Shown piece by piece: positions 4,782 to 16,976 of a stretch of DNA of 16,976 nucleotides (positions are counted from its first letter, which is position 1; the number at the start of each line of letters is the position of its first letter). The stretch lies in the IMG/VR virus record IMGVR_UViG_2913112809_000005; one strand, written 5' to 3'. The position numbers and the translations under genes were made by a program. The notes under the pieces were generated by a model that was given only the letters and a program-made list of their open reading frames with translations, had not been told where the DNA came from and made no database searches. This DNA is from a virus (taxonomy: Duplodnaviria; Heunggongvirae; Uroviricota; Caudoviricetes).

Positions 4782-5874
4782 TCGTGACGTCTATTGCGGT
4801 GCATTCCGCCCACTCATGCGCCTGCAAAATACGTTTTGTAGGCATATTCAGCGCAACGTCATAGACGCCATCGACCTGTAACACTTTGATTATCTGGTTT
4901 GGCACAATGTCCTGCCCCAGATGTTTCTGCCGCTGTTGCGTCCAGAGGCTAATCGCTTTACGCGCCGCAGCCAGCGTTGTCTCCTGATCGGCGGTGGTAA
5001 ACAGCATTAGCTGCGCACGGATCTCATACGGCACTCGAAGAGCGCATTTCGCACTCACTTTGTCGGTCAGCGGACGTTTTTTCTCCTTGCTAACCTCCTG
5101 TTCAATTTGCGCGAGCAGTTCCACTCCCGGCAGACCATTCAGCGTTAGCGGGTAGATCTCCACGCAGCCTTCTGGCAATCCCTCGTCCGGCCCCAGTACT
5201 GAAACGTCAATAATCGACTGGCTAACAGAAAGCGTATGGAAGCGGTATGCGCCATAGCTGCCCGCATTACTAAAGCTTTCTGGTGCCAGTTGGATACGCT
5301 GGCGCAATGCGTCATCGCTCTCTTCACCGCAGCCGCCCGTTGACGCAGTCAGGTTGGTTACGTTGATGTCATAATGACCAATCCTGTCGACCAGTGCGCT
5401 AATTTGTGCAGGCTGCCAGCCGTTACCCTGTTCACCTGCTGCGAGGCTGGTGGCAGGAACGGCGATATGCAAACTCCTGGCCGGAAGCAGAACATCTTCA
5501 TCGGTGGCGAACATCACGCTATCAGAGGCACTGGCCCGCGTCCCCTGGGGAATCAGGATATTGCTGGTATACGCACTGACGACCGAAAACTGCAACGTCG
5601 TTTTTGCCGGTTGTGCAGGCAAACGGTGAACGCCCACCAGCTCCCCTAAATAATCCAGCATTGGCGCGCGGGAATACGCGACCAGGTTTTGTTTCGCCGC
5701 TTCCTGAATGGCGATGCGTACAAGGTTTTCACGATAGGCAAACAGGTCGATGAGCAACCGCTCAGCCTGTGCAGGATAGAGTTTTTTACCGCTGGCATCT
5801 TCGTATTGCGCAATCATCTCACTGGTAATTTGCGCTGGATCGCGGTCAATAAAATTGGGTTCGGCTATCGCCAT
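4759..5874 (-). CDS. Baseplate protein, gpJ family (Mu gp47-like, T4 gp6-like wedge)
   Basis: 371-aa ORF in the conserved position between gpW and gpI; size and order match Baseplate_J proteins; overlaps both neighbours in the operon. Confidence 0.8.
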   Translation of the reverse strand: MAIAEPNFIDRDPAQITSEMIAQYEDASGKKLYPAQAERLLIDLFAYRENLVRIAIQEAAKQNLVAYSRAPMLDYLGELVGVHRLPAQPAKTTLQFSVVSAYTSNILIPQGTRASASDSVMFATDEDVLLPARSLHIAVPATSLAAGEQGNGWQPAQISALVDRIGHYDINVTNLTASTGGCGEESDDALRQRIQLAPESFSNAGSYGAYRFHTLSVSQSIIDVSVLGPDEGLPEGCVEIYPLTLNGLPGVELLAQIEQEVSKEKKRPLTDKVSAKCALRVPYEIRAQLMLFTTADQETTLAAARKAISLWTQQRQKHLGQDIVPNQIIKVLQVDGVYDVALNMPTKRILQAHEWAECTAIDVTIAGVSDG

Positions 5875-6224
5875 AACACCTCCGTTGAGTTGATTACGCC
5901 GTCAGCGGCGCGCCATTGCACACGTAACGTCAGATGTTCACCGTCGATTACAGGTGTCACCTTCAGCAACCGACAGCGCGGTTCCCACTGGCGAATGGCT
6001 TCCACCGACTCCCGTACCACATGCGGGATTGCCCGCTCGATGGGGTAATCGATGTAGTGCCACAAATTGCTGCCAAACAGCGGTCTGTGGGGATCACTGC
6101 CGCGCGGTGTACGCAGAATGATGTGTATTGCCTGGTGAATATCATCCAGTCCGCAGACGTATTTTTCAGGCCGCTGCAAGGCCGGTTGCCAGTGCAGCGT
6201 TGAGGGTCGTGTTTTTGTGTTCAT
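5865..6224 (-). CDS. Baseplate protein, GPW/gp25 family
   Basis: 119-aa ORF of the size and position of P2 gpW / T4 gp25 / Mu gp46 homologues, between the spike and gpJ. Confidence 0.75.
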   Translation of the reverse strand: MNTKTRPSTLHWQPALQRPEKYVCGLDDIHQAIHIILRTPRGSDPHRPLFGSNLWHYIDYPIERAIPHVVRESVEAIRQWEPRCRLLKVTPVIDGEHLTLRVQWRAADGVINSTEVLWR

Positions 6225-6297
6225 GAGGGTATTTTCGCCCTGAACGGGCTGCGGGGATATTAAAGCGATTTAGAAAACTGATTGATTAAAAAGAGAA

Positions 6298-6317
6298 AAC
6301 CCGCCATCAGGCGGGTT
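6298..6317 (-). terminator. Intrinsic terminator/attenuator between gpV and gpW
   Basis: 8-bp GC-rich stem AACCCGCC-tgat-GGCGGGTT, 5 nt downstream (minus strand) of the gpV TGA stop at 6323-6325, followed on the minus strand by TTCTCTTTTTAATCAATCAGTTTTCT. Confidence 0.6.
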
Positions 6318-6322
6318 AAACG

Positions 6323-7024
6323 TCAGTGTGAATGGTGGTTGGAGTTGCCACCGCTGTCCTGCAATGCGCCGCTGGCCTGAACGTTGCCGATCACGTTGAC
6401 ATTGCCAGTTATTGTGGCGGCGTTACCGATGCCTCCACTTCCTGCCATCCCGCCAAGCCAGGTGAGTTTTTTCATTACCGTCACGTTACCAGTAAAGGTG
6501 CTCATGGGCGCATCTACCGTCACTGCTGCCGCTTTAACATCGACCTTAGTGGCGTCGATGCTGACATCGGTCGCTTTAACATCGACAGTATCGGAAGTCA
6601 CGATGACCTGTTGGGCTTTAATCTCAACGTTGGGCGATGTCAGGCTGGTACGGTCGATAACCTCAATCACGATTTTCTCGATACCGCCGTTAATCGTCAG
6701 CTGGTGCGTGCTGCGGTCATATTCAAACGCTGCGCCATCAGAAAACTGGACGTAACGTTTATCGCGCGAGGCCACAGGCGCGGTGTCAACCGTAGAATAA
6801 ACTGCGCCCAGCACCACGCCATCTTCACCGTTATTGTCCAGCAGAACTTCCACTTGCTCGCCCATATCCGGTAGCCAGTAGTCTTTATTGTCCTGGGAAT
6901 TGCGTTGAAGTACCGCAAGCCAGTTGCTCTTCAGATTGTCACACTCCGGAAGCGTGACTCGCACCCGAACGCTGGTTTCGTCAATATCGCTGATAATCCC
7001 CGTTTGCCGGGTTACTCCTTTCAT
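6323..7024 (-). CDS. Baseplate central spike, gpV family (Mu gp45-like), with His-rich C-terminal tip
   Basis: 233-aa ORF with an N-terminal OB-fold-like region and a C-terminal repetitive beta-helix-like segment (VDVKATDVSIDATKVDVKAAAVTVDA), ending ...GGNSNHHSH. AGGAGG RBS 7-12 nt upstream. Confidence 0.8.
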   Translation of the reverse strand: MKGVTRQTGIISDIDETSVRVRVTLPECDNLKSNWLAVLQRNSQDNKDYWLPDMGEQVEVLLDNNGEDGVVLGAVYSTVDTAPVASRDKRYVQFSDGAAFEYDRSTHQLTINGGIEKIVIEVIDRTSLTSPNVEIKAQQVIVTSDTVDVKATDVSIDATKVDVKAAAVTVDAPMSTFTGNVTVMKKLTWLGGMAGSGGIGNAATITGNVNVIGNVQASGALQDSGGNSNHHSH

Positions 7025-8274: not shown

Positions 8275-9224
8275 CAGCTCCTCGTAATGGTCGCGGCAGC
8301 AAACTGGCTCACTGTGGGAGTGGTTTGTTGTACCGTTGTTCGTGCCTGATCAACCAACGTTGCGGCTTTATCGAACGTCGCTTGGGCGATGCCGCTGGTA
8401 ATGTCGTCGAAAAGCGCCTGAGCATGGTCAACCAGCGTACTGGCGTCATTGGCGCAGTCCCGGATACCTGGCATGTTACCCAGTAAAGCTTTAATCTGCG
8501 CCGACAACGCTTTTGGGAGTCCTGCCAGCGTTTGCAGATCCGTTGGCTGTTTAAACAGGGTTTCGATGGCGTCGATTGTCTTTTTCAATGACGTAATTAT
8601 CTTTTCACACTTTTCTTTTAACGCTTTGGCCTCTTTAATCATTGCTTTCACTTTTGCCACCGTTTTTTTAATATCTTCAATGGCTTGTGTCAGTTCATCC
8701 AGCATCTCTTTGGCCTTACGCATACCTTCTTCAATGGCGTTTAATATCTGATCAAACCAGGACTCCACCATGTCGGGAAAATTGCTCGCCTTTTCCTCAA
8801 TGTTAGGCTCCTGGGTGGTAATCGCCGGAGGTAAAAGTGGATTTTTAGGATCGCCGGTGTACTCCTGGAGCGACATCGTTCCGTTTTGGGCAATCACATT
8901 GCCCCAGGGATCGGTGTGCTGGTGGGTGGCGGTTAGCTCTGTAATTACAAACCAGCCGCGATAATCGCCATTGCCAAATACCAGTGCCATCGCCTTGTGA
9001 GCAAGCATGGCTTCACGCAGTCGATTCAGCTCTGTTGTGGGCTGGCAAAACTGGCTGTGCAGGGAAAATTCCAGCGCCAGTATATCCAGCTTATCGCCAA
9101 TAAACTGCACGCCGGGCTTGCCTTCTATACGGGCATGTGTGGCGTAATCCACGCCCATTGTGCTTTTAAAGCCGTCCCAGAATGTGACAACCTTAAATTC
9201 AATCTCTCCTAAAACGGCATACAT
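8271..9224 (-). CDS. gpU-like tail protein with a roughly 175-aa C-terminal alpha-helical/coiled-coil extension
   Basis: 317-aa ORF. First about 140 aa follow the P2 gpU pattern (M..LG...F......F..........G.P..QF.G...D...L...L......L..L...........G.G...G.FVITEL). The remainder is Lys/Glu/Ala-rich with heptad-like periodicity (KAKEMLDELTQAIEDIKKTVAKVKAMIKEAKALKEKCEKI...). Stop/start overlaps the tape measure gene. Confidence 0.7.
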   Translation of the reverse strand: MYAVLGEIEFKVVTFWDGFKSTMGVDYATHARIEGKPGVQFIGDKLDILALEFSLHSQFCQPTTELNRLREAMLAHKAMALVFGNGDYRGWFVITELTATHQHTDPWGNVIAQNGTMSLQEYTGDPKNPLLPPAITTQEPNIEEKASNFPDMVESWFDQILNAIEEGMRKAKEMLDELTQAIEDIKKTVAKVKAMIKEAKALKEKCEKIITSLKKTIDAIETLFKQPTDLQTLAGLPKALSAQIKALLGNMPGIRDCANDASTLVDHAQALFDDITSGIAQATFDKAATLVDQARTTVQQTTPTVSQFAAATITRSW

Positions 9225-11584
9225 CAGGCATACCCCCGGCGCTGTTGTTGCGCCATTACGTCGTTAATTATTCTTTCCAGTTCGCGTTTACTCATCGTCA
9301 ACACGTTCTGAATCTCTTTAGTATTGTTTGGTCCGTTACCCTGCACGGTAATCTGTGGCGAAAAAGTCACCTGGACTTTTCCAGGGGAACGGGAGGGTAG
9401 CGTCGCCGGTTTGGTTACGGATTTATCTGGTAAAGAGGTCGACGCGAGTTTTGCGGCAGGCACTGATGACGGCGTTGTCGTTTTGCTGGATGGCGCGAGT
9501 TGTTTCCCCACTGGAGGCGTTAAAATCGCACCGGCAACGCCTGGAACAACGGTCGCGGGGGAGACTGAGGCAGAATTAGTGGTGCCTGTAGCAGCCGCAG
9601 CCGATCCTTCTGTGCTGATACCCATTGTGGATTTTAGCCAGTCTGGTATGGCGTTTTTGACCTGGTCAATAATGCCTTTCAGAGCGGGAAAAGCATTCAT
9701 TATGCCGTCAGCCAGGCTACCCAGTATATTGCTGCCGAACTCGCTAAAACTCGCAGGCATCTCAACACCAAACCAATTCATCACTCCGGCAAAGGCGCTG
9801 TAGAACAGCCCCAGTGGCGACCAGTCGCAAATCAAACGGCTAATACCAGCAATACCGCCATTAAAGGCCGTTGTGATACGCAGCCAGATGGCGGAAAAGA
9901 ACCTGGAGATAGGTTCCCAGTTGCGATAAATCAGATAAGCAGCGCCCGCAATCGCAGTGATGACCAGACCAATGGGATTCATCAATAACACCCGGCCTAG
10001 CGAGAGAACGGTTCGACCAACCAGTTTCAATGCTCCGAGCAGGCTACGACCAAGCAGTTGCGTTAGCCATTTTGCGCCGCCACCCAATGACTTAACCGCC
10101 GATAACACCTTACTCGCTGCGCCGCCGAGCGCCAGACTTGCCCTGACTTTCAGGAAGATATCGACCAGACGAATTAACGGCGAGGCGATGAAGTTCGCGC
10201 CCAGCTTTAAAACATTCAGCGCGCCGTTAAACAGCCAAATCGCCCCGACGATTTTCGCAATGTTTTGCACCAGCGCCGGGTGTTCACGTAGCCATGCGCT
10301 GAACTGGCGAACAACCGGAGTAAGGCTTTGCGCCAGCTCGCCAATCAGCGGCATTAATTGCAAGCCAATGCTGAGCCATAAATCATTTAACGCCAGCTGT
10401 AACGCTTTAGTTTGTTCAATGGGCGAGGCCATCTGCGCAGAAAAGTCAGCGTCAATCAGATTCTTACTGCTGGCTTGCATGGCAGAGGCTTTTAACTGGC
10501 GATATTCCTCCATATTCGCCAGCACAGGTGCCAGGAATTCCACTGTTTGCGCATCGCCGAACATTTCGCCCAGATTAAACTGCGTCACCATCGATTGCAG
10601 CGCAGTGCTGCGAGCAGATAAATCTTCAATCTTCATGGTGCGTTTGAAGGTGTCGAGGATCGCCGGATTCATCTTCTCAAGCTGCATTTGCACGATATGA
10701 GTCATGGCTTCGCTAACACCCATACCGTTTTGCTGATGCTCAAGCAGAGAACCTTGCAGATCAACGCCCTGGCTGGCGAACCAGTTATCGGTTTTTTTCG
10801 AAAAGGTGGTTTGCAGAAAGTGGTCGAAATTCTCCGCCGCCGCACTGGCACTGGCCCCGTTTTTTATGGCGATCTGCATGGTGGCGGTCAGTTCAGCCAT
10901 ACCTTCCAGACCCTGAGCGCCGATTTTACCTGCAAATTTCTCTATCCACTGCGTTTGTTCGGCAACGGCAGGCCCACCGCTTTTGCTAATGCCATACATC
11001 ATGTTTTGCGCGGCGTGGAAATTTTCTGGGGCAATATTCAGTCGATCATGAGTCGCGAGCGCGGCATTCGCCCACGTTTCAGCACTTTCGCGCGTGGCGG
11101 TGGCAGCTTTGGCGATCTCCGGCATATAACGGTTGAGATCCTGCATCGACGACAAATTGCCTTCGATCAGCGTTTGGGCTGCGTTCTGTAAGGTGGTCTG
11201 CTGCTGGTTAAAATCCATGCTCCAGCCGCGCAGATTAAGGCTGAGCGTCTCGCGGGTTGTAGCATTCATCCCACCTTTGGTCGCCATATTGACCATGTTG
11301 TCCTGGAACTCATATGGCAACTTCCAGTCGGGGGCTTCAACATTGAATACCTTGCTAAATTGCCCGGCAAATGTTTGGGTTTTCTCCATTAGATCAGCGC
11401 GGTTCCGGCTATTTTCCTCCAGGCGGAGAGCAGAATCGGCAAGTTGCTGCGTTAGTTTGATTACTGTCGCTTGCTGAGAAGAGAGAGCTAACAAAGTTCT
11501 GGCGTTGAGTGAGCCGTAACGGGCTATTGCCTGCGTCAACGTCTCATTACGCGCCTGAAGCTGGGTAATAATATCGTTGGCCAA
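9224..11584 (-). CDS. Tail tape measure protein
   Basis: 786-aa ORF, largely alpha-helical with internal hydrophobic segments, between the chaperone gene and gpU as in all long-tailed phages. Apparent initiator is TTG at 11584; the first in-frame ATG is about 66 codons in, so the exact start is uncertain. Confidence 0.85.
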   Translation of the reverse strand: MANDIITQLQARNETLTQAIARYGSLNARTLLALSSQQATVIKLTQQLADSALRLEENSRNRADLMEKTQTFAGQFSKVFNVEAPDWKLPYEFQDNMVNMATKGGMNATTRETLSLNLRGWSMDFNQQQTTLQNAAQTLIEGNLSSMQDLNRYMPEIAKAATATRESAETWANAALATHDRLNIAPENFHAAQNMMYGISKSGGPAVAEQTQWIEKFAGKIGAQGLEGMAELTATMQIAIKNGASASAAAENFDHFLQTTFSKKTDNWFASQGVDLQGSLLEHQQNGMGVSEAMTHIVQMQLEKMNPAILDTFKRTMKIEDLSARSTALQSMVTQFNLGEMFGDAQTVEFLAPVLANMEEYRQLKASAMQASSKNLIDADFSAQMASPIEQTKALQLALNDLWLSIGLQLMPLIGELAQSLTPVVRQFSAWLREHPALVQNIAKIVGAIWLFNGALNVLKLGANFIASPLIRLVDIFLKVRASLALGGAASKVLSAVKSLGGGAKWLTQLLGRSLLGALKLVGRTVLSLGRVLLMNPIGLVITAIAGAAYLIYRNWEPISRFFSAIWLRITTAFNGGIAGISRLICDWSPLGLFYSAFAGVMNWFGVEMPASFSEFGSNILGSLADGIMNAFPALKGIIDQVKNAIPDWLKSTMGISTEGSAAAATGTTNSASVSPATVVPGVAGAILTPPVGKQLAPSSKTTTPSSVPAAKLASTSLPDKSVTKPATLPSRSPGKVQVTFSPQITVQGNGPNNTKEIQNVLTMSKRELERIINDVMAQQQRRGYA

Positions 11585-12117: not shown

Positions 12118-12137
12118 TTCGGGGCCGTAGCCCCGAA
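12118..12137 (-). other. Stem-loop immediately downstream of the tail tube gene
   Basis: 8-bp GC-rich inverted repeat TTCGGGGC-cgta-GCCCCGAA between the tube stop (12141-12143) and the gpE start (12091); no clear U-tract follows, so more likely an mRNA-processing/stability or partial-attenuation element than a full terminator. Confidence 0.45.
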
Positions 12138-14728: not shown

Positions 14729-14842
14729 ATGGGTTGTACCTTAATTACCGCTCACTTCGTTATCGTTGAAATATATTCTGAAGCAGTGAAGGTGAAGAAT
14801 CTTTTAATGTAATTTAGAGAAAAAATTGAATGGCTATAAAAA

Positions 14843-14870
14843 ATCCCCACACTTACGTAAAGGTGGGGAT
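14843..14870 (-). terminator. Intrinsic terminator after the lysis cassette (potentially bidirectional)
   Basis: 8-bp stem ATCCCCAC...GTGGGGAT with an internally palindromic loop, beginning 4 nt after the TAA stop at 14875-14877; followed on the minus strand by TTTTTATAGCC and on the plus strand by GTATTTAATA. Confidence 0.7.
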
Positions 14871-16393: not shown

Positions 16394-16413
16394 TACTGTA
16401 TACGTATACAGTA
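16394..16413. promoter_or_regulatory. LexA (SOS) box, near consensus
   Basis: TACTGTATACGTATACAGTA, a perfect CTGT-N8-ACAG palindrome matching the gammaproteobacterial LexA consensus TACTGTATATATATACAGTA at 18 of 20 positions. Lies in the divergent intergenic region; a TTGACA hexamer sits 21 bp to its right (16435-16440) and a TATTAT hexamer overlaps its left end on the minus strand. Confidence 0.7.
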
Positions 16414-16634: not shown

Positions 16635-16976
16635 ATGATACGAAAATCAAAAGAGATGGCCCGGACACCGGAGATTATTAACGACCTGGCTTTTCATGCA
16701 TCGCAAGTTCTGATTGAAAGCATCATTCTCGACAGTTCATCGGCAGAAAATGTGGGTTTTGCCATTGCCGACCGAATGATGCGTAACTGGGGCGGACAAA
16801 GCATCTATTTCCCTAAGGGGATCTCCGGACGAGCATCGGAGCGTGACTACCAAATCTATAGCGAGTGCGATGGGCGCAACTACGCTGAATTAGCGAAGAA
16901 ATATAATCTGACGCTGCAATGGATTTATAAGATAGTCAAACGTGTACATACGGAGAAGCAGCAGAGTCGTATGTAG
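16635..16976 (+). CDS. Mor/C-family transcription activator (phage Mu middle/late activator family)
   Basis: 113-aa ORF with GGAG RBS. C-terminal region (GGQSIYFPKG...ERDYQIY.ECDGRNYAELAKKYNLTLQWIYKIVKRV) closely parallels the Mu Mor/C DNA-binding region (GGGQVYIPRG...RDLRIWNDFNGRNVSELTTRYGVTFNTVYKAIRRM). Complete ORF ending with TAG at the window edge. Confidence 0.7.
   Translation: MIRKSKEMARTPEIINDLAFHASQVLIESIILDSSSAENVGFAIADRMMRNWGGQSIYFPKGISGRASERDYQIYSECDGRNYAELAKKYNLTLQWIYKIVKRVHTEKQQSRM

Follow-up and report, generated by a model that had tools for sequence, protein, structure and literature searches.

A predicted terminator and a putative activator-type promoter block between the spike and wedge genes of a headless contractile-tail cluster

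Are the wedge and fiber genes of a contractile-tail cluster read as an extension of the genes before them, or do they form a transcription unit of their own? The question is raised by a short gap in a 16,976-nt stretch of DNA from a virus of the Caudoviricetes (IMG/VR record IMGVR_UViG_2913112809_000005), which we analyzed over its full length and refer to as the window. Positions 6225-6322 are exactly the 98-nt gap between two open reading frames (ORFs). Upstream lies a gene for a gpV-like baseplate spike (6323-7024, minus strand; stop codon TGA at 6325-6323; Pfam Phage_base_V, 5e-08; PHROG baseplate assembly protein), and downstream a gene for a gpW/gp25-like baseplate wedge protein (5865-6224, minus strand; ATG at 6224-6222; Pfam GPW_gp25, 5e-11; PHROG baseplate wedge subunit); we refer to the two genes as V and W. 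The initial annotation placed a GC-rich 8-bp hairpin followed by a U-rich tract directly after the V stop codon, about 70 bp before W, and proposed, with the late operons of phage P2 as a parallel, that it either attenuates expression of the downstream genes or delimits a separately promoted unit. A pair of tail genes with an intrinsic terminator between them is in itself nothing new and belongs to ordinary phage organization.

We consider it reasonably probable that the gap combines a terminator, here called T2, with a downstream Mor/C-type late promoter that starts W, J, I, and the fiber genes as their own unit, with a leaderless W message. According to this model, polymerase coming from a promoter before gp37 would end at T2 and close the gp37-sheath-tube-tape measure-U-X-D-V transcript, with V as the final gene of this upstream unit. 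A dimer of a Mor-family protein would bind a TAAA-N4-TTTA dyad in the gap and recruit sigma-70 polymerase to a GAAAAT hexamer that has no -35 partner. Transcription would begin on the A of the W ATG, giving a leaderless mRNA for the W-J-I-fiber-assembly genes, with W as the opening gene of the unit. T2 would shield the W promoter from incoming polymerases and uncouple the wedge/fiber unit from the sheath-to-spike unit. A gene for a Mor/C-family transcription activator is present in the window (16635-16976, plus strand, divergent from the tail cluster; Pfam Mor, 2.3e-37; truncated by the window end).

The hairpin downstream of V

Read on the minus strand, the gap runs TGA-cgttt-AACCCGCC-TGAT-GGCGGGTT-TTCTCTTTTT, with the hairpin beginning 5 nt past the V stop codon. 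The hairpin and U-rich tract of the initial annotation were confirmed: the stem (6317-6298, minus strand, recovered in a consensus scan) has 8 bp, of which 6 are G-C, and a 4-nt loop. Together with the two closing T's of the stem, the T-run (6288-6297, minus strand) has T at 10 of 12 bases, the sequence after GGCGGG being UUUUCUCUUUUU (10 U in 12). The estimated distance to W was right as well, with 73 nt between the end of the stem and the W ATG and 63 nt between the end of the T-run and the ATG. T2 has the sequence features of an intrinsic terminator, i.e., a G+C-rich stem, an adjoining U-rich tract, and a location on the transcribed strand downstream of a coding sequence, and the same palindrome read on the plus strand lacks a T-run. 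Structurally, T2 is like the canonical Rho-independent terminators of Escherichia coli; it is unusual only in the 5-nt distance to the stop codon and in having a promoter block that begins within ~15 nt of the T-run.

The 37-nt T2 segment folds with -15.3 kcal/mol, compared with -5.45 ± 2.13 kcal/mol for 200 dinucleotide shuffles, none of which was as stable (z = -4.62). An Rfam scan of 5900-6700 gave no family; the only match, Hrs1, scored 18.5 bits (E = 0.68), whereas its gathering score is 56.4. Although T2 is the joint best terminator-like match in the window, the total number of such matches (19 versus 18.2 expected) is not above chance; the case for T2 therefore rests on how good the site is, on the coding-strand stop codon just before it, and on the fact that other genera have kept it.

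We measured the V-W gap in each of 66 loci encoding W, which were collected with a pattern that includes part of the promoter block described below. Most of the gaps are 97-99 nt long and fall into 16 distinct sequence variants from several enterobacterial genera. All 16 keep the core stem CCCGCC/GGCGGG and the T-run, while the 5-nt spacer after the stop codon, the loop (TGAT, CAA, TCA, or TAA), and the closing pair vary; T2 is thus conserved across E. coli-like, Superficieibacter, and other lineages. The contrast between an invariant core stem and variable flanks argues for constraint on T2. Among the 5426 E. coli genomes searched, the 52-nt T2 segment is present in a single copy per genome, only inside the element, in the 195 carrier genomes. 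Because the segment is single-copy, it is not a repeat of the repetitive extragenic palindromic (REP) type, and we excluded that T2 is a dispersed repeat of the REP/bacterial interspersed mosaic element (BIME) or enterobacterial repetitive intergenic consensus (ERIC) kind. Judged from its sequence, T2 is a genuine, conserved intrinsic terminator that is predicted to stop transcription in vivo.

A hairpin at the end of a transcript could instead mainly guard the V-ending mRNA from 3' exonucleases or mark a processing site. We regard this as unlikely, with a small but real chance of being the principal role. It would fit with the finding that the T2 site holds REP palindromes in Salmonella and REP/BIME- and ERIC-like inserts in Phytobacter and Dryocola, since REP/ERIC-type elements often act as mRNA stabilizers, and with the GC hairpin without a T-run that is also present after the tube gene of the cluster. 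However, in every variant that has the T2 hairpin, a T-run directly follows the stem, and a T-run is needed for termination and not for stabilization. The two roles are not mutually exclusive.

The promoter-like block upstream of W

Beginning ~15 nt past the T-run of T2, the remainder of the gap has the layout of a promoter. In nine aligned junctions from five genera, ATCAA, TAAA, C-CTTTA, TATC, and GAAAATA, followed by C-CATGAA, are invariant, and the stretch amid these invariant blocks is free to change in sequence and constant in length. The most upstream segment, ATCAAT...GTTTTC (6273-6286, minus strand; about -62 to -49 from the predicted start), in which ATCAA is invariant in the nine junctions, is possibly an A/T-rich upstream subsite, and a similar block precedes W in Chromobacterium. 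It is followed by the dyad TAAA-TCGC-TTTA (6261-6272, minus strand; in its extended form CTAAATCGCTTTAA), which has invariant half-sites, is centered at ~-42.5, and is the putative site of the Mor-family activator; in Salmonella and Pandoraea, the dyad is a perfect 14-bp palindrome, TTAAAGCGCTTTAA. A 24-nt spacer (6237-6260, minus strand), variable in sequence, fixed in length, and with no indels in 15 variants, separates the dyad from the -10-like hexamer GAAAAT (6231-6236, minus strand), with A at -11 and T at -7. This hexamer is invariant in the enterobacterial junctions, and its equivalents at the same position in phages and Betaproteobacteria are AATACT, CAACAT, CACGAT, and CACCAT. The -35 position reads TATCCC, so the block has a recognizable -10 without a -35 hexamer. 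The W start codon (6222-6224, minus strand) is the first possible start after an in-frame TAA, and its A (6224) is the predicted transcription start.

Published Mor/C-dependent promoters combine a -10 with a 16-bp imperfect dyad, centered at -43.5, to which the activator dimer binds, and they lack a -35 (PMC2582627, PMC4390567). The late promoters of phage Mu (Plys, PI, PP, and Pmom, dependent on C) and its middle promoter Pm (dependent on Mor) are like the block before W in having a -10, no -35, and an imperfect dyad near -43 that overlaps the -35 region. In Mu, several such promoters partition the genes for lysis and morphogenesis, a layout shared by the window, which also has a Mor/C-family gene. 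The Mu baseplate promoter PP precedes gene P, which encodes the gpD homologue, and thus lies two genes earlier than the break in the window.

The block recurs. The pattern TAAA-N4-WTTW-N24-NANANT has three matches in the window, compared with 0.09 expected, and none of 200 shuffles had three. All three are on the coding strand (minus), at 16166-16125 before the holin gene, at 14816-14775 before gp37 and the sheath and tube genes, and at 6272-6231 before W. The pattern scan gave TAAA-TTAC-ATTA, N24, and CAGAAT for the second copy (gp37) and TAAA-GCTT-TTTT, N24, and GACACT for the third (holin), the latter being a conserved island in the comparison with Salmonella. Applied unchanged to 1.42 Mb of fetched loci, with both strands counted, the pattern had 72 of its 74 matches directly before holin, gp37, or W (holin, 9/9 loci; gp37, 10/13; W, 53/66), with differing spacers and constant spacing. 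In the complete phages PhiKM and KP12, the strict pattern occurs twice per genome, before the head-gene block and before W, compared with 0.02 expected; with one mismatch in the dyad allowed, the lysis operon and the gpE chaperone gene are marked as well (two relaxed copies per phage). We also built a weight matrix from only the non-W sites of PhiKM and KP12, using only the dyad and hexamer columns. With this phage-trained matrix, the V-W site is the top match in the window at 22.0 bits, a score attained in 1 of 200 shuffles. It replaced a full 42-column matrix of six phage sites, with which V-W was also the top match but scored 10.5, within the range of the shuffled maxima (up to 17.5). Based on these scans and alignments, the predicted W promoter is well supported, the gp37 promoter is likely, and the holin promoter is plausible, the last mainly from its cross-genus conservation.

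The gp37 copy is part of a module that is a twin of the V-W gap. It is preceded by a second terminator-like hairpin, T1 (ATCCCCAC...GTGGGGAT and then TTTTT; 14838-14870, minus strand), which lies 4 nt past the stop codon of the last lysis gene and folds with -15.5 kcal/mol (z = -4.05). The T1 stem contains a compensatory change, with an A-U pair in E. coli and a G-C pair in the Salmonella type. T1 is followed by TTCAAT-N6-TCTAAAT and then by the gp37 promoter copy; the sequence TCAAT-N6-TCTAAAT is found only after T1 (before gp37) and after T2. The cluster thus appears, from these sequence features, to consist of three units (lysis; gp37 to V; and W to fiber), with an activator-type promoter of the same kind at the start of each and a clean terminator at the end of two. 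This picture provides a map of where to cut or mutate for inducing, engineering, or re-targeting the E. coli/Salmonella tail cluster.

The position of the hexamer bears on how W is translated. The 15 enterobacterial variants all place the ATG at a distance of exactly 7 from the hexamer (6 nt between) and have C at -1 and A at +1; the phages and the Betaproteobacteria share this geometry. W starts with ATG in every relative; several other genes of the cluster start with TTG. The sequence upstream of the W ATG, GAAAATACCCTC, lacks a normally spaced Shine-Dalgarno sequence, and no G-rich run comes closer to the ATG than 13 nt. The W mRNA is therefore probably leaderless, with the A of the ATG as its predicted +1. 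The GenBank record of P2 has the V-W-J-I-H-G transcript begin at 10308, the very base at which the V coding sequence begins, and the activator site at 10239-10266; our literature search found no citable statement that the P2 gene V mRNA is leaderless, and our reading of P2 rests on the GenBank annotation. If the leaderless reading of W is true, it would be a second baseplate operon, after that of P2 gene V, to open with a leaderless message, and would hint at a shared logic that keeps the first wedge or spike gene weakly translated.

The initial annotation had left the choice between an attenuator and a separately promoted unit open, and the conserved promoter block between the hairpin and W favors the latter. 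If T2 acted only as an attenuator, it would be a partial terminator that lowers read-through into W-J-I-fiber from the upstream tail promoter, with no promoter at W itself. We find this improbable. The hairpin lies 5 nt from the V stop codon, so that a nearby ribosome could make termination incomplete; moreover, complete phages lack the terminator, so read-through into W must happen there. On the other hand, an attenuator leaves unexplained that conservation is higher in the block between the hairpin and W than in the neighboring spacer, that its spacing is exact across gamma- and betaproteobacterial relatives, that it recurs before two other first genes, and that it has the best score with an independently trained matrix. 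Read-through transcripts are also a poor fit to the geometry of W, which points to a leaderless mRNA: in the absence of a normally spaced Shine-Dalgarno sequence, an internal W start on such a transcript would be poorly translated. Nor does an argument from stoichiometry fit, as the low-copy proteins U, X, D, and V are encoded upstream of T2.

Several points nevertheless weigh against the combination of a terminator and a Mor/C-type promoter that we favor. (i) The six core pairs of T2 are invariant in 10 aligned variants, and covariation therefore neither supports nor contradicts pairing. (ii) T2 has been lost or interrupted, with the promoter kept, in three lineages (Salmonella, Phytobacter, and Dryocola), arguing that T2 is dispensable or replaceable. 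(iii) A terminating ribosome near a hairpin that begins 5 nt past the V stop codon could hinder its folding and make T2 leaky while V is being translated, which leaves room for a partial attenuator role. (iv) The Mu activator site has 5+6+5 bp, a G/C-rich spacer, and a center at -43.5 in its published description, whereas the dyad in the window has 4- to 5-bp arms, a 4-bp spacer, and a center at -42.5; the dyad is thus 2 bp shorter with its center 1 bp closer, the rest of the block having the Mor/C architecture. (v) GAAAAT is a weak -10, and 21 nt before it is a better-looking TAATAT (6262-6257), which extends over the right half of the dyad. As a -10, TAATAT would give a 26-nt leader; we rejected it as the primary candidate because it overlaps the right arm of the dyad and is not common to the other two promoter copies. 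We chose GAAAAT because its geometry is constant across relatives and retain TAATAT as a minor alternative. (vi) We derived the promoter pattern post hoc, from the window itself, and its W matches are partly circular because the collection pattern included part of the block; the holin and gp37 matches are not circular. (vii) With the phage-trained matrix, the gp37 copy is second at 14.0 bits, a score reached in 26 of 200 shuffles and only suggestive, and the holin-proximal copy is at background level.

Two further structures in the gap were considered and rejected. A hairpin in the 24-nt spacer, GCCC-GTTCA-GGGC, seemed at first sight to covary between genera; it has a z of only -1.6 in the window, where 11 of 200 shuffles were as stable, and across nine taxa shuffled spacers mostly do as well (fractions of 0.03-0.66). 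A second hairpin beside the ATG, GGG-CGAAAATA-CCC, is broken in the L035-type variant (GAAAATAAGCAC).

P2 remains a useful parallel in gene order, in which the order W-J-I-H is shared downstream, and its PV promoter likewise is an activator-dependent late promoter that opens a separate baseplate/fiber unit (V-W-J-I-H-G), with a leaderless start by GenBank annotation. The P2 unit opens with V, and that in the window with the next gene, W; D is not the gene before V in P2. The parallel does not extend to regulation or ancestry: the P2 PV region has a TGT-N12-ACA site for an Ogr-type activator, whereas the window encodes a Mor-family protein, 6225-6322 contains no match to TGT-N12-ACA, the closest complete relatives are of the BcepMu type, and the cluster has no head genes. 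Tail gene units driven by an activator are known from P2 and Mu; what sets this lineage apart is where the break falls (before W) and its pairing with an acquired terminator.

The age of the break before W

The nearest complete phages to the cluster are transposable phages of the BcepMu type. BcepMu, PhiKM, and KP12 share with it the tail order U-X-D-V-W-J-I-H and the dyad-N24-hexamer-N6-ATG block before W; they differ in being complete phages with head, transposase, and lysis genes and in the V-W gap. In all three, neighbors among U, X, D, V and W, J, I overlap or abut, except V and W, which are 53-54 nt apart. This gap consists of the V stop codon, 4-5 nt, a dyad (TTAAACGCCTTTAATATC in the enteric phages and TTAGCCGGCTTTAATATC in BcepMu), a 24-nt spacing, AATACT or CAACAT, 6 nt, and the ATG; it contains neither a hairpin nor a T-run. 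In Pandoraea, the block is found before W even though a CV_2116-like ORF separates V from W. In Chromobacterium (loci L020-L022, 1860-6400), the genes are permuted to D-V-fiber-(196-aa ORF)-gpI-W, and the block still lies directly before W. We found no systematic hairpin upstream of the W promoter in Betaproteobacteria, the one possible case being Chromobacterium vaccinii.

Because the block is located before W whatever lies upstream, the promoter appears to travel with W, and W to open a unit throughout this tail family. These comparisons therefore point to a break before W that is ancient and defined by the promoter, and to T2 as a later addition of ~44 nt that is specific to the headless enterobacterial elements. 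The suggestion that the terminator creates the split does not hold, as the same promoter block is found without a terminator in KP12, PhiKM, and BcepMu, and also in Pandoraea and Chromobacterium.

The lineages in which T2 is lost or interrupted show how the gap changes. In Phytobacter (L006, 5824-6001), a REP/BIME-like insert of ~80 nt splits the T2 hairpin. In Dryocola (L007, 5742-6001), the left arm of T2 is followed by an insert of ~170 nt that resembles the ERIC consensus. In Salmonella, only a remnant of T2 is left, TTCTGACCCCGCC, which corresponds to the spacer and left arm and is fused straight to the downstream block; two REP palindromes lie between this remnant and the V stop codon, and L057 (junction at ~9162-9339) represents the "empty" form. 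Most Salmonella loci (e.g., L002, 2680-6000) instead carry an 80-codon ORF and gtrA-gtrB-gtrC at the V-W junction, in the same orientation as the tail genes. On either side of this cargo is a copy of a directly repeated segment of ~40 nt, which contains the REP palindrome GCCCGGTAAGCGCAGAAGCGCCACCGGGC; L057 has one copy of the segment. Every insertion between V and W falls upstream of the conserved ATCAA, and the W-proximal block is untouched. A promoter that adjoins W would explain how gtrABC could insert between V and W in Salmonella without breaking tail gene expression.

The three insertions (Phytobacter, Dryocola, and Salmonella) are independent and lie within the same ~40-nt terminator region of the gap. 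We also considered that V-W might be a mosaic recombination joint, because BLAST hits split there. Identity changes little across the junction (80.7% versus 75.5% in Salmonella), and the alignments of three other lineages run through it without a break; the splits are due to insertions that replace the terminator.

Given that the junction accepts cargo, including gtrABC with a small ORF in Salmonella and extra ORFs in Pandoraea, and that T2 is absent from the complete phages and hence was acquired, T2 and its flank might be the leftover terminator of a cargo gene (moron) that was lost from between V and W. We think this very unlikely. The Salmonella cargo is flanked by duplicated REP sequences and not by T2, part of the T2 left arm survives at the empty site in L057, none of the 5426 E. 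coli genomes has another match to the 52-nt T2 segment, and T2 follows the V stop codon by 5 nt with no other foreign sequence. We give almost no credence to a chance palindrome without function: although the number of terminator-like matches in the window is at expectation, none of the 200 shuffles folded as stably as T2 (z = -4.6), T2 directly follows a stop codon on the coding strand and is conserved across genera with variable flanks, and its twin, T1 with a promoter, shows compensatory change.

As read from these sequences, terminator-then-late-promoter modules are a recurring design in this group, in which promoters are stable and terminators come and go. More broadly, we tentatively put forward, with somewhat less than even confidence, that in BcepMu-type tails, from Burkholderia, Pandoraea, and Chromobacterium to E. 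coli and Salmonella, the wedge-fiber genes are a portable unit with its own Mor/C-type promoter and a leaderless W; that a terminator was inserted before this promoter upon domestication into a headless cluster near lysC with a LexA-box-like site; and that the junction then became a landing pad for REP and ERIC sequences and a phase-variable gtrABC O-antigen operon.

The tail cluster and its surroundings

According to the ORF list, the long ORFs of the window are all on the minus strand. Based on Pfam and PHROGs, their order along the direction of transcription is holin, SLT transglycosylase, and a small membrane protein (lysis); Gp37, sheath, tube, chaperone, tape measure, gpU, gpX, gpD, and gpV; and gpW, gpJ, gpI, tail fiber, and a DUF4376 fiber-assembly protein. 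The Mor protein is 48% identical to the late activator of BcepMu and 44-45% identical to the activators of KP12 and PhiKM, and the W protein is 61-68% identical to the W homologues of BcepMu-type phages. A Mor gene is also annotated in the E. coli and Salmonella counterparts of the cluster.

The closest E. coli match is in strain ws5-3, with 98.8% identity across the V-W junction, where the cluster lies between lysC and yjbD/rluF and carries the Mor, lysis, and tail genes (L001, 15500-31200); head, portal, terminase, and transposase genes are absent from the ws5-3 cluster. The element is present in 195 of 5426 complete E. coli genomes, always as a single copy and always in the chromosome; the carriers include ws5-3 (NZ_CP110511.1) and CE10 (NC_017646.1). 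In Salmonella serovar Infantis SARB27, the same headless cluster occupies the same locus (L023, 5700-24500), with locus tags that cross-refer to LT2 STM4198-4219; in the STM numbering, W is STM4203 and gp37 is STM4215. We conclude that the window element is a headless BcepMu/Mu-like tail cluster with a Mor-family activator and not a P2 prophage. Our literature search found no paper describing the lysC-yjbD cluster as a tailocin and no usable description of the Salmonella STM4196-4219 cluster or its gtr context.

R-type tailocins such as pyocin R2 are similar to the element in being chromosomal, headless contractile-tail clusters with their own lysis cassette and regulator and in the LexA-box-like site; they differ in gene order and ancestry. 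Pyocin R2 and the ST131 tailocin have the P2 gene order, and the ST131 tailocin is a different element from that in the window (PMC9205054).

A near-consensus LexA box, TACTGTATACGTATACAGTA, lies in the Mor-holin intergenic region (16394-16413), with two mismatches to TACTG(TA)5CAGTA and 0 expected by chance. Sigma-70-like minus-strand hexamers (TTTACA-16-TACAGT) overlap the box, which is kept in Salmonella. This site suggests that the cluster may be under SOS control.

The gp37 promoter copy (14775-14816) resembles the copy before the head-gene block of complete phages (TTTTCTAAAGCAGATTAAAA...; PhiKM L071, 5042-5083). This resemblance suggests that the headless element may have arisen by deletion of the head genes, with the head promoter kept and now fused to gp37. 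In the E. coli-like locus L051, T1 is absent and the promoter is kept, the last lysis stop codon being followed by ATTCAATTTTTTCTCTAAAGCAG and the promoter block.

The hairpin after the tube gene, GGGGC-TACG-GCCCC (12121-12134), directly follows that gene and has neither a T-run nor a promoter copy; it could have a role in stabilizing or processing the transcript. PhiKM has a similar GC hairpin, GGGGCTCCGGCCCC, after a small ORF that follows the tube gene, and there it is followed by TTCTTCTT (a T-run) and a late-promoter copy before gpE.

The distal end of the cluster is variable. In the window, it carries a gene for a GT4-family glycosyltransferase (1-1047) and a 151-aa ORF (1516-1971) that matches a PHROG "moron" family, and in ws5-3 it carries instead a slipin-family gene and a nucleotidyltransferase gene. 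The best E. coli matches to the window end at ~3214, indicating variable cargo and a variable fiber C-terminus at this end. Directly after the 151-aa ORF, the last gene of the cluster, is a palindrome, ACCGGGCA-NNN-TGCCCGGT (1492-1510), with poor T-runs on both strands; it is possibly a weak or bidirectional terminator that closes the W-fiber unit.

The V gene itself varies in length. E. coli Q5 (L004, 1024-1683) has an in-frame deletion of 42 nt, and other genera have insertions of ~7-28 residues, such that the gpV alignments span 240-261 positions for a query of 233 residues; in L032, gpV has a premature stop codon ~100 nt ahead of the usual end of V. Finally, a 6.6-kb contig labeled "MAG: Bacillota bacterium" (L005, JAEZCC010000043.1) encodes V and W proteins that are 98-99% identical to those of the E. 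coli element and has a 98-nt junction; its Bacillota label probably reflects a binning contaminant.

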